Below, in pieces: positions 4,550-64,000 of a stretch of 64,000 nucleotides of DNA. A model generated the notes under the pieces. That model saw only the letters and a program-made list of their open reading frames with translations, ran no database searches and had not been told where the DNA came from. This DNA comes from a virus (Duplodnaviria; Caudoviricetes), in the IMG/VR virus record IMGVR_UViG_2508501001_000004, positions 18,187 to 82,186 of that record. One strand, written 5' to 3'. The stretch's first letter is position 1. The number at the start of each line of letters is the position of its first letter. Position numbers and translations under genes: made by a program.

Positions 4550-4793
4550 CCCTGCTGCATTATACCCTTATACAATATGTTATTTATAAAGGTATAGTGT
4601 TTCTCAGGGATATCGTAGGCTGCGATCTCCTTAGTCCCCCCAAAAATAGGCTCAGCATTCTCTACTGCTGAGCGTAGCTTTATCCTGTCCCAAACATCCC
4701 TCATATAGGTTTCTCTGGGGCGAATATGTCCTGATACTTTGAGTTTTCCAGAGTAGGGTGCATCCTTATCAAAGAAGAAGATGCAAGAAACAT

Positions 4794-4861
4794 AAAAAGC
4801 ACCGTCCTAAACGGTGCTCAACTTACCCAAGAAAGCCGAAAAGCCCAGCATTGCTGGGCTT
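4794..4861 (-). terminator. Two tandem minus-strand terminators, probably the original ssrA terminators displaced by integration
   Basis: AGCACCGT/ACGGTGCT and AAGCCCAGCA/TGCTGGGCTT hairpins with A-tracts, just left of the att site. Confidence 0.6.
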
Positions 4862-4899
4862 CGTATGTTCATTCATTGTATCAAAGATTGAGTACTTAT

Positions 4900-4911
4900 T
4901 GGTGGAGGCGA
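4900..4911. repeat. Left attachment-site core (displaced tmRNA 3' end)
   Basis: TGGTGGAGGCGA, exact direct repeat of 63907-63918. Confidence 0.85.
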
Positions 4912-5010
4912 CCTTACACTATATAAAACCCTGCAATATAAGGCGATATTCAAGTAGGAAAATAAAGGATTTTAGACCTTCCCCTAGAATAAAGTTTCTA
5001 GGTGATGCGT

Positions 5011-5268
5011 ATGGATAGTAGTTTAAGAAAAAAGCCAAGAATTCAAAATAACCTTCGATATTACCGGGAAAAACTCGGAGTCACTCAAAAAGAGATGGAG
5101 TATCGAACTGGTGTCGGAAATCGTCACTGGCCCTCCTACGAAAATGGGACTCACGAGCCTAAGGTTTCATTGGCTCAGTGCATGGCGGCTGCATTTAATG
5201 ATATAGCCGCCGAAAAAGAAATTGAATTAAAAAGGTTAACAGTCGATGATCTGTACCCCCCTCAATAG
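5011..5268 (+). CDS. XRE helix-turn-helix protein
   Basis: NNLRYYREKLGVTQKEM...YENGTHEPKVSLA; RBS AGGTGA; terminator hairpin at about 5264-5296. Confidence 0.8.
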   Translation: MDSSLRKKPRIQNNLRYYREKLGVTQKEMEYRTGVGNRHWPSYENGTHEPKVSLAQCMAAAFNDIAAEKEIELKRLTVDDLYPPQ

Positions 5269-11800: not shown

Positions 11801-11812
11801 GAACGTTTGTTC
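11801..11812. promoter_or_regulatory. LexA (SOS) box
   Basis: GAAC-GTTT-GTTC between the -10 TATAAT and the RBS of 11532-11780. Confidence 0.7.
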
Positions 11813-34665: not shown

Positions 34666-34843
34666 ATTCAGCCAGGATCGATTGAACGTCTGTTCCTGTA
34701 ACTCCGGGAATTTCAGATACAGTAACAGCAGAGGCGGAAATAGATCCGCCCTCGCCGCTTTCCAACTTTTCCAGGCATTTAATCACTCCATGGATTTTTC
34801 CCACTGGCGTTGTTCTGGATTTAACACTGCTTAAATCTGGCAT
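34634..34843 (-). CDS. Small head-associated hypothetical protein
   Basis: 69 aa, RBS AAGGGGGG directly after capsid gene. Confidence 0.6.
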   Translation of the reverse strand: MPDLSSVKSRTTPVGKIHGVIKCLEKLESGEGGSISASAVTVSEIPGVTGTDVQSILAEFAARIATLEE

Positions 34844-61270: not shown

Positions 61271-61460
61271 TCTCTCACCACCTTTATGGTTATTTTATAA
61301 CTAAAAGAGATAATAATCAAGCGTAATTATAACCAATAGTGATTAATCGGGAGCTATTTCCTCGAGAATGCTCTATATAGCTTTATTTATCTCGATATAT
61401 CACTAAAAGTTATATTGATATATTTATAACTATCGGTTATAGTTATAACCAGAGGTGATA
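61060..61460. promoter_or_regulatory. Six 17-bp operators, consensus TAT(A/C)AC-N5-GT(T/G)AT(A/T)
   Basis: 61060-76, 61296-312, 61328-44, 61398-414, 61425-41, 61444-60. Confidence 0.75.
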
Positions 61461-61463
61461 ATA

Positions 61464-61886
61464 ATGATCGGAAGCAGGCTAAAGGAACTCCGAGCCAAAA
61501 AGCAGATTACGCAAGAAGAGTTAGGTAAAATTGCCGGGGTGACTACTTCAATGATCGGCATGTATGAGATTGATGCAAGAAAACCAAGCTTTGAAGTAAT
61601 AGAAAAAATAGCTGATTATTTTAATGTTACCGTTGATTATATCTTGGGGAGGGAAAGTAGTGCTGAGAATGAAAAGTTAAAACCTCTTACCCCAAAAGAA
61701 GAAAAGGATATCGCTAAGGATCTAGAAAAAATGTTATCCAACCTAGAAAGTGAGGATTCTCTCGCTTTTATGGGTGAGCCTATGGATGATGAAACTAAAG
61801 AACTTATGAAAATATCTCTTGAAAACTCCATGCGCCTTGCAAAACAACTTGCAAAGAAAAAATTCACCCCGAAAAAGTATAAATGA
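61464..61886 (+). CDS. CI/ImmR-like repressor
   Basis: ITQEELGKIAGVTTSMIGMYE..RKPS; EKDIAKDLEKML. Confidence 0.9.
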   Translation: MIGSRLKELRAKKQITQEELGKIAGVTTSMIGMYEIDARKPSFEVIEKIADYFNVTVDYILGRESSAENEKLKPLTPKEEKDIAKDLEKMLSNLESEDSLAFMGEPMDDETKELMKISLENSMRLAKQLAKKKFTPKKYK

Positions 61887-61906: not shown

Positions 61907-62371
61907 ATGGATATTAAAGAAAAAGTGGACAAGCTTACACGCAGATACCATACAAATGAGCCGTTTGAAATTGCTGAACGCAAAAATATCCCCATCATCA
62001 TCGAACCATTAGGCGATATCTGGGGGTATTGCCATAGTTACAAGCGAATGCAAATCATTCACCTTAACAGCGAATTGGATTATATTGATCAGCGTTTCAG
62101 CTGCGCTCATGAATTAGCACATATTATCCTTCACCCAAGGATTAATACTGGTTTCCTCCGGATGCATACCTTCTTTTCCGTCGAGCGAATCGAACGAGAG
62201 GCCAATTGCTTTGCGGTAGAATTACTTATACCAGACTCGATGATCAGATCCTATGAGCACATATCCCGATCCATCTATGAGATGGCCTCAATTTGCGGGG
62301 TGCCAGAGGAACTGGCAGATTTGAAAAAGATTGAGAATCAGCGCACTAAATTTTTTTACCCTTTTCCCTGA
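61907..62371 (+). CDS. ImmA/IrrE-family metallopeptidase
   Basis: RFSCAHELAHIILH; EREANCFAVELL. Confidence 0.9.
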   Translation: MDIKEKVDKLTRRYHTNEPFEIAERKNIPIIIEPLGDIWGYCHSYKRMQIIHLNSELDYIDQRFSCAHELAHIILHPRINTGFLRMHTFFSVERIEREANCFAVELLIPDSMIRSYEHISRSIYEMASICGVPEELADLKKIENQRTKFFYPFP

Positions 62372-62381
62372 ACATACGTTC
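62370..62381. promoter_or_regulatory. LexA (SOS) box upstream of integrase
   Basis: GAAC-ATAC-GTTC, 26 nt before integrase ATG. Confidence 0.7.
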
Positions 62382-62407: not shown

Positions 62408-64000
62408 ATGAAGAAAATTCGCATCCGCGCGGCACTCTACGCACGTTATAGCTCAGATAATCAACGTGAAGAATCTACCATAGCTCAACTTCGAGCAGGA
62501 CGGGAGCATGCTAAGAAAAAAGGCTATTTAATAGTTGCCGAATATAAGGATGAAGAAATAACCGGCAGATATGATCGACGGGATGATTTTCAAAAGATGA
62601 TTCGTGATGCAAAGCATGGTCTCTTTGATGTAATTATCATACACAAATTTAACCGTTTCGCTCGCAATAGGTATGACTCAGCCATATATAAGCGCATGTT
62701 AAAAAAGGCCGGAGTTCGCGTAGAAAGCGTACTACAGCCTTTAGATGATTCTCCTGAATCAATCTTATTAGAAGCTCTATTGGAAGGAATGGACGAGTAT
62801 TATAGCTTAGATCTTGCCCGAGAGGTCATGAAAGGCATGTTCGAAAATGCGGAGCAGGGAATACACACTGGAGGGAGACCTCCTTATGGACTAAAAGTCA
62901 ATCCAGATACTCATAAGTATGAAATTGATGAAACCAGATACAAAGCTGTCCAGATCTACTTTGAAGGACGAAAAGACGGGATATCGCGTAAAAACATTGC
63001 TGAAAAGCTTAATACTTTAGGGTATAGGACACAAACCGGGAAAAAGTTTACTAGGGACAGTTTTTATGGCTGGGATACTAATAGAAAATATAATGGTGAC
63101 TACGTATTTAATGTGGCTAGTTCTAAAGATGTCGATGGCCGACGTAATACCAGCAAAAAGAAACCCATTGAAGAACAGGTTATTAAAGAGGGAATCATCC
63201 CTAAAGTCCTCGACTCTAAACTTTTCGGGGAAGTGAATGAATTGATAAAGAAGAATAAATATAAGCCTGGCCGAATGAAGGCCAAAGTAAACTATTTACT
63301 TACAGGGAAAGTCTTCTGCGGAAAATGCGGAGCATCGTACAATGGGAACTCTTATCGAAATTCTAAAAGTAAAGAAAATACCCTCTTATGTTATTATAAG
63401 TGTTCTGGAAAATGCAAAAACCCAAGTATGCGGAAGGATGATCTTGAACACATAATAATTAACCAGCTCTCCGTTCATTGTTTCTCTAAAGAAGCTATGG
63501 ACAATATTGTCATAAGGGTCAAAGAACTTTATCAGGAGCGTAGAAAGGAAACTCAGGACGATATTGGTCCGATCAAGAAGGAGATAAAAGAACTTGAGTC
63601 TACTATTGAAAATTGGATGCAAGCATTAGGAAAAGGTATAAGGGGCCTTGAAGAAAGAATTGTAGAAGCTCAAAATAAAATTGATCTTTTCCATGAAGAA
63701 CTGGATCATATAAATATGCTTCAAAAAGAAACAGAAATAAACGATAAAATGATTTACGACTTATTAAAAGAAAAAAAGGATGCTCTCTATTCCGATGATG
63801 AAAACGAAAAGAAGAGCATCCTTCAAGAATATGTAGATAAGGTTATAGTTAACCCTTCAGATAATATCAACACCTTTGACCTAGAAATAACCTACAGGGT
63901 TTTTAATGGTGGAGGCGAGGGGACTTGCACCCCTGTATCGAAGAACGACCACAAAAGCGTCTACGCGTGTATCCTTTATTTTAAGTTTCGCCAGTCGTGA
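62408..64000 (+). CDS. Large serine recombinase (integrase); ORF crosses the att site
   Basis: YARYSSDNQ catalytic Ser, RFARN, GGRPPYG, YLLTGKVFCGKCG zinc ribbon, coiled coil. Confidence 0.95.
   Translation: MKKIRIRAALYARYSSDNQREESTIAQLRAGREHAKKKGYLIVAEYKDEEITGRYDRRDDFQKMIRDAKHGLFDVIIIHKFNRFARNRYDSAIYKRMLKKAGVRVESVLQPLDDSPESILLEALLEGMDEYYSLDLAREVMKGMFENAEQGIHTGGRPPYGLKVNPDTHKYEIDETRYKAVQIYFEGRKDGISRKNIAEKLNTLGYRTQTGKKFTRDSFYGWDTNRKYNGDYVFNVASSKDVDGRRNTSKKKPIEEQVIKEGIIPKVLDSKLFGEVNELIKKNKYKPGRMKAKVNYLLTGKVFCGKCGASYNGNSYRNSKSKENTLLCYYKCSGKCKNPSMRKDDLEHIIINQLSVHCFSKEAMDNIVIRVKELYQERRKETQDDIGPIKKEIKELESTIENWMQALGKGIRGLEERIVEAQNKIDLFHEELDHINMLQKETEINDKMIYDLLKEKKDALYSDDENEKKSILQEYVDKVIVNPSDNINTFDLEITYRVFNGGGEGTCTPVSKNDHKSVYACILYFKFRQS
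63907..63918. repeat. Right attachment-site core
   Basis: TGGTGGAGGCGA; equals the antisense of the tmRNA 3' end and integrase codons (N)GGG. Confidence 0.85.
63907..64000 (-). ncRNA. ssrA: tmRNA, 3' portion (5' part outside window)
   Basis: Minus strand ...GGATACACGCGTAGACGCTTTTGTGG...CAGGGGTGCAAGTCCCCTCGCCTCCACCA: T-arm, acceptor stem and CCA, with no anticodon arm upstream. Confidence 0.8.

Follow-up and report, generated by a model that had tools for sequence, protein, structure and literature searches.

The window, by which we mean the whole 64,000-nt stretch of DNA analyzed here, carries an integrase gene (int) at its right end, on the plus strand at 62408–64000. Its open reading frame encodes a 530-residue protein in which a Resolvase domain (PF00239, residues 8–151) is followed by a Recombinase domain (PF07508, 179–283) and a Zn_ribbon_recom domain (PF13408, 297–354). 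The closest structural matches of the integrase model are the SPbeta, Bxb1, PhiC31, and LI integrases, and AlphaFold2 places helices 361–408, 415–440, and 446–460 between the zinc-ribbon strands, forming a coiled coil within the zinc-ribbon domain. By this domain content the protein is a large serine recombinase (LSR), for which attP × attB recombination without host factors is predicted. Upstream on the same strand lie an XRE repressor-like gene and then an ImmA/IrrE M78 protease gene, and the 3′ end of int overlaps ssrA, the tmRNA gene, on the opposite strand. PHROGs matches to the left of int include the terminase large subunit, portal, MuF-like minor head, major head, tail sheath, tape measure, and tail fibre. 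Judged by these genes, the element between the two copies of a 12-bp direct repeat is a complete myovirus-like prophage of about 59 kb. The features of the locus are:

4836–4899, minus strand: native sequence downstream of ssrA, terminator hairpin included, displaced and now 59 kb from the gene (by comparison with the relative G003)
4900–4911, plus strand: attL copy of the 12-bp identity block, the putative inner part of the B arm plus the central GA (4910–4911)
4910–4957, plus strand: separated 3′ end of int, reading in frame from the core through 15 codons to a TAG stop
4912–63906, no strand assigned: prophage body, about 59 kb (PHROGs matches)
61455–61886, plus strand: XRE-family repressor-like gene, ImmR-like (HTH_3, E 2.4e-15)
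61907–62371, plus strand: ImmA/IrrE-type M78 metalloprotease gene (Peptidase_M78, E 6.7e-24)
62370–62381, no strand assigned: palindrome resembling a LexA (Cheo-type) box and the host boxes, 27 nt upstream of the int start codon
62408–64000, plus strand: prophage-form large serine integrase gene, 530 residues, the last 27 codons from the antisense of ssrA
63907–64000, minus strand: 3′ 94 nt of ssrA, which runs on to 64258, beyond the window (Rfam)

The complete tmRNA gene was found by a whole-genome Rfam search on the minus strand (147 bits, full model 1–374) at C1:5458285–5458636, equivalent to window positions 63907 to 64258. This puts the CCA end at 63907, and int overlaps the tmRNA gene in antisense over its own final 94 bases. 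Rfam gave no RNA match on the window alone because merely 94 nt of ssrA lie inside it, and ARAGORN, which misses the tmRNA of this genus, called none in the window or in the locus L001, which extends beyond it. An identical 12-mer occurs in direct orientation at 4900–4911 and 63907–63918, flanking the prophage; the 5.66-Mb genome holds three copies (about 0.7 expected), two of which are these. The reverse complement of this core is the tmRNA 3′ acceptor strand, discriminator, and CCA, which bears out the proposal, made in the original prediction, that the GGT-GGA-GGC codons of int double as the antisense of the tmRNA 3′ end.

The int frame crosses the core as GGT GGA GGC GA, with GA forming the first two bases of codon 504. 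Carried on at the left copy, the same frame runs for 15 more codons to a stop at 4955–4957, giving a protein of 503 + 15 = 518 residues. Near-identical tails occur at attL sites of other species (L282 and L016) and in a contiguous phage-form contig (L104). From this geometry and the contiguous phage-form relatives, we infer that integration swaps a conserved 15-residue tail for 27 tmRNA-antisense residues. The sequence to the left of the crossover also serves twice: it encodes the last conserved integrase residues, and the 10 bases nearest the crossover make up the acceptor 3′ strand, discriminator, and CCA of the tmRNA. The phage thereby supplies the tmRNA 3′ end and restores ssrA on integration.

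An unoccupied counterpart of the site is available for comparison. In the relative G003, the homologue of window positions 4789–4899 directly adjoins the 3′ end of ssrA, a join that is an empty attB. This marks the left flank of the prophage as the natural downstream region of ssrA, including its terminator, which can be read at 4836–4862 as a minus-strand hairpin followed by a T-run. More empty sites are present in other species of the genus and in one metagenome contig. Among public-run contigs at the junction, one from a wastewater metagenome has an empty attB-like junction of a relative and the others break at the core; no attP or attB junction from the strain of the window was seen among these contigs, which were the only public-run data used.

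The original prediction had placed att inside int, with the gene reading through the core to 530 residues in the prophage and to 518 residues in the excised circle, so that excision swaps the C-terminus. All of its coordinates hold, and the empty attB of a relative, the palindromic attP described below, and contiguous phage-form homologues all agree with it. We regard the geometry of this arrangement as close to certain.

Several observations concern the surroundings of ssrA. Four of the five relatives searched (G003, G007, G010, and G012) have two full tmRNA genes, and the genome of the window has one. G003 and G012 each have one tmRNA copy with an empty site, and in G003 an element of roughly 9 kb lies between the second tmRNA copy and its flank. 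The stretch of roughly 110–160 nt downstream of ssrA (window 4746–4900) contains two hairpins and recurs as a dispersed repeat across the genus, with up to 7–8 copies per genome that are often clustered within tens of kb; many copies lack the att core, and a partial copy lies elsewhere in the genome of the window. Past the right end of the window, just beyond ssrA, one public run shows a doubling of contig depth over L001 2042–3352 and a second contig branching at 2042, so this region is probably a two-copy repeat in the genome.

Joining the right end of the prophage to the left end yields a 50-bp near-palindromic attP centered on GA (63917–63918 and 4910–4911). The parts of the att sites are:

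4912–4935, plus strand: P′ arm of attP, 24 bp, which would also provide codons 504–512 of the excised-form integrase (17 of 24 positions match the reverse complement of the P arm)
63893–63916, plus strand: P arm of attP, encoding the residues before the swap point, with its inner 10 bases forming the tmRNA 3′ end in the lysogen
63917–63918, no strand assigned: inferred crossover dinucleotide GA and attP symmetry center (symmetry analysis), non-palindromic and inside the 12-bp identity
63919–63938, plus strand: putative B′ arm of attB inside the tmRNA T-arm, with an outer motif 5 bp nearer the center than in the P′ arm (sequence reading)

The two attP arms form an inverted repeat around GA with 17 of 24 positions matching. 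Across 19 family members this symmetry averages 16/24, and other centers in the same sequences average 6 with a maximum of 15. On this symmetry GA is the probable crossover point; the attP center falls 10–11 nt from the CCA end of the tmRNA. The outer motif occupies positions 18–22 from the center in the P′ arm and 13–17 in the B′ arm, and the B arm of attB, also examined for it, does not show it. A 5-bp inward shift of the motif bound by the zinc-ribbon domain is known for attB of LI integrase (Rutherford et al. 2013, PMC3783163). In a subfamily represented by L033–L035, both attP arms carry a different outer motif, changed together, as expected if the arms are two half-sites of one enzyme.

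Some family members depart from this pattern. The junctions of L195 (Desulfosporosinus sp. BG) and L194 combine P and P′ arms from different subfamilies, with 10–11 of 24 positions matching, and int of L195 is split into two open reading frames; these look like tandem elements or decayed arrays. For a related prophage in G005, the attL candidates lack the matching P′ arm. Five elements (L104, L034, L035, L278, and L287) carry TGGCGG in place of TGGTGG in the P arm or att core. Since the restored RNA would then have a different discriminator base, they may target a different tDNA or a variant tmRNA.

To see how far the arrangement extends, we turn to the homologues of the integrase. A protein search returned 4467 of them (E below 1e-30), and tail classes were read in the best 120 of these, which are 41–100% identical to the query. 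Nearly all of the best 120 of 4467 share the motif that precedes the swap point. Beyond it, about 60 of these 120 end in an antisense translation of a tmRNA or of a tRNA T-arm, and about 40 of the 120 end in a conserved native tail, usually of 14 residues. The antisense, prophage-type tails are 2 to 50 residues long and vary even among proteins 83–85% identical to the integrase of the window; given this spread among close relatives, they look incidental. The two tail classes occur in homologues at 35–85% identity from Desulfosporosinus, Paenibacillus, and other Bacillota, and again in viral, metagenomic, and genomic contigs, although most of what the metagenome search yielded was distantly related and told little about the close subfamily. 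Among 80 species genomes, ARAGORN placed an int reading frame over an antisense tmRNA (15) or tRNA (9) in at least 24 cases, a lower bound because the program misses the tmRNA of the genus of the window. A sister subfamily in the same genus (P0076, P0088, P0094, and P0098; L039 and L040) crosses the same ssrA 3′ end in a different frame, so that the spanning of att depends neither on a particular frame nor on the glycine motif. These counts indicate that the att-spanning int design is real and widespread.

This recurrence also bears on whether the element is merely a fixed, non-excising remnant whose frame stays open across the junction by chance read-through. A stretch of 27 open codons after the junction is not unusual by chance, and no excised form was seen among the public-run contigs. 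Nevertheless, the set of structural genes is complete, both att copies, int, and the attP arms are intact, and the reading-frame-spanning design recurs in dozens of independent elements, which makes a remnant very improbable.

Contiguous phage-form contigs, in which the ImmR–ImmA–Int module is followed by lysis-type genes, display what the circular form of the window phage would be expected to look like. In the window, a small XRE-type HTH gene (5002–5268) directly follows the detached int tail. It would stand immediately downstream of int on the same strand in the circular form and is a possible candidate for a regulator or directionality factor.

The native tail was next considered as a possible target of selection, by aligning the codons of 18 phage-form sequences. 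At four tail positions all 18 DNAs encode the same residue with varying wobble bases, and one Leu position uses all four CTN codons. At tail codon 11, which lies beyond the 24-bp half-site, Tyr is found in 15 of 18 sequences with both of its codons in use, and 11 of 18 share the position of their stop codon, with TAA, TAG, and TGA all represented. Two fourfold-degenerate sites inside the P′ arm are nevertheless fixed, indicating constraint at the DNA level too. Because tail codons 1–8 are also the binding site of the integrase, the two levels of constraint are confounded there.

The doubling of binding site and coding sequence admits a simpler account, in which att at the 3′ end of int makes a compact, inseparable module, the tail is dictated by the half-site, and the two isoforms behave alike. 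The P′ tail codons are the reverse complement of P-arm codons, so that the tail peptide mirrors the palindrome, and in one subfamily tail and P-arm codons change together. The prophage tails of any length and the use of another frame by the sister subfamily at the same ssrA site fit this neutral account as well. So does the tail of the window phage itself, which differs from that of L016 by about 6 non-synonymous and 2 synonymous changes. Its distal part is off the family consensus, with Ala where most members have Tyr, and matches L282, L016, and L104, which belong to the same genus or clade; among the closest relatives of the phage, tails are 14, 15, and 25 or more residues long. Against a purely site-dictated tail stand the residues kept while wobble bases vary and the conservation of Tyr and of the stop position beyond the half-site. 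We give the neutral account an appreciable but minority share of our belief.

Structure prediction adds a further point against it. In the AlphaFold2 model of P0010, a phage-form homologue 64% identical over 95% of the query, the protein ends in three consecutive strands, the last of which (507–515) lies in the tail. Mean confidence by 10-residue block is 63 for residues 501–510 and 86 for 511–516, and the glycine turn is of low confidence. The prophage form of the window has no predicted secondary structure over residues 500–530, where pLDDT is about 30, a value that may come partly from a heterogeneous alignment. The solved LSR structures (LI, SPbeta, Bxb1, and PhiC31) align up to about model residue 496–508, placing the tail strand outside the canonical fold as a clade-specific addition; its absence from these structures is in turn what one would expect if the tail were a by-product. 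With the models and the codon alignment taken together, we think that the native tail belongs to the protein proper and is under selection, being predicted to add a short β-strand to the last zinc-ribbon hairpin at the base of the coiled coil.

The position of int opposite ssrA also has consequences for transcription. Downstream of int on the plus strand, no terminator occurs until past ssrA. The minus-strand ssrA is cut off from its own terminator, now on the far side of the prophage, and has ahead of it only the weak terminator-like sites inside int. With terminators missing on both strands, convergent and mutually antisense transcription of int and ssrA is expected in the lysogen. Host lexA and recA are preceded by Cheo-type boxes whose right half is GTTT. 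Apart from the 4 central bases and the final one, the palindrome upstream of int is the same as these, and a box at −28 to −33 precedes int in 3 of 18 homologous loci. Perfect GAAC-N4-GTTC palindromes are absent upstream of host lexA and recA and are not enriched genome-wide (49 found versus about 82 expected). Since the host boxes have a GTTT right half, the LexA reading depends on resemblance rather than on strict counts of the motif, and LexA control of int is a possibility. The original prediction had int transcribed antisense to tmRNA under a LexA box, of which the antisense overlap with ssrA stands and the box holds by resemblance only. Four of the 49 genomic palindromes lie within the 64-kb window, three of them at 1557–1568, 11801–11812, and 34684–34695 in addition to the one upstream of int. 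One of these three has exactly the sequence of the box before int, although it is situated in host DNA to the left of the prophage.

These features could mean that the main effect of the arrangement is at the RNA level, with the highly transcribed, terminator-less ssrA reading antisense into int, int reading antisense through ssrA, int thereby silenced until SOS induction, and the tail swap secondary. The displacement of the natural ssrA terminator to 4836–4862, the weak minus-strand sites in int with a plus-strand terminator only beyond ssrA, and the LexA-like box all point this way. Such effects are, however, compatible with a state-dependent enzyme and do not exclude it, and we consider it rather unlikely that they are the main consequence.

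The reading that we favor, with modest confidence, as the best explanation of the whole is a state-dependent enzyme that arises from att lying inside int, with a native tail under selection. Under this reading, the circular genome, after infection or excision, would encode the native 518-residue enzyme, so that the full form would be made when integration is needed. Recombination at GA would then restore the tmRNA from the P arm and detach the last 15 codons from int. The lysogen would make only the 530-residue variant, with its unstructured, incidental read-through tail from the tmRNA antisense. In this state int would face convergent transcription from terminator-less ssrA, with LexA control as a possibility. 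The variant must presumably still be competent for excision assisted by a recombination directionality factor (RDF), and if the prophage form must be active for excision, the tail would not be essential for catalysis. That the tail swap has a measurable functional effect on the enzyme, be it on activity, stability, or directionality, we judge to be an evenly balanced proposition.

A bolder version of the state-dependent enzyme, which we regard as speculative and on balance doubtful, takes the detachable C-terminal strand as a built-in directionality switch. The strand would pack at the base of the coiled coil, where RDFs act. Full-length enzyme made from circular DNA would favor attP × attB synapsis, and the prophage enzyme, lacking the tail, would lean towards attL × attR excision or be licensed for it more readily. 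If this were true, a whole clade of tRNA- and tmRNA-targeting serine integrases would sense its own integration state through the structure of its gene. Serine integrases are major tools of genome engineering, and the control of their directionality is an active structural topic. A large natural clade whose enzymes have their own binding site in their last codons offers a simple, testable case of isoforms that depend on integration state. For annotation, the arrangement means that integrase genes called from lysogens of this clade carry a false C-terminus.

The arrangement can be compared with several known systems. In its domain order, 50-bp pseudo-palindromic attP, 2-bp center, and 5-bp inward shift in attB, the window resembles the LSR systems of LI/A118, Bxb1, PhiC31, and SPbeta SprA. 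It differs from these canonical LSRs in that their att sites lie outside int, their targets are usually protein-coding genes, and their integrases lack the extra C-terminal strand. The integration-dependent immunity of mycobacteriophages, which Broussard et al. are said to have described in 2013, reportedly has attP splitting the repressor gene and an ssrA-like degradation tag being removed. The original prediction had drawn this parallel, and its general part stands, as in both cases a gene that contains attP yields a product that varies with integration. The specific part does not carry over: neither integrase tail ends in an ssrA-like degradation tag, and the comparison is loose because the repressor-like gene of the window (61455–61886) is intact and lies well away from att. 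DsiB and Mx8 IntP are nearer parallels.

DsiB of Dehalococcoides is the large serine recombinase of ssrA-specific islands (McMurdie et al. 2011, PMC3146451). Its gene always overlaps att at the 3′ end, with a stop codon found only outside the island or inside ssrA; McMurdie et al. described the C-termini as divergent and speculated that DsiB is perhaps fully functional only on the circular element (PMC3146451). Compared by description, the window shares with DsiB an ssrA-targeting serine integrase, a reading frame across att, and a stop outside the element. The differences are in scale, site, and tail. DsiB elements are small mobilisable islands with a small serine recombinase, DsiA, as partner and a syntenic six-gene module, whereas the window holds a 59-kb prophage with ImmR/ImmA/Int. 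The former insert in the T-loop with a 20-bp direct repeat, the latter at the acceptor/CCA end with a 12-bp identity. Finally, the native tail in the window is conserved, in contrast to the divergent C-termini of DsiB.

According to the Islander paper (PMC4383910), Mx8 IntP/IntX (Tojo et al. 1996) and SSV-type integrases extend across attP at a tRNA-type target. They have in common with the window an attP inside the integrase coding region and an integrase that is altered or split by integration. The Mx8 and SSV enzymes are tyrosine recombinases with a long, complex attP, whereas the integrase of the window has serine recombinase domains only. The prophage form of the Mx8 integrase is reportedly less active.

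The Islander paper also states that serine integrases are not known to target tDNAs (PMC4383910), a statement that the overlaps reported here contradict for many Bacillota. Within the limited coverage of our literature search, where absence is not proof, no description of the design for Bacillota phages was found. Together, these comparisons place it among designs that are known but barely described, and it was already glimpsed in Dehalococcoides in 2011. To that precedent the present analysis adds a tail encoded by the palindrome, covariation of the att arms, the contrast between ordered and disordered predicted tails, and an ImmR/ImmA/LexA context in a full-size phage.
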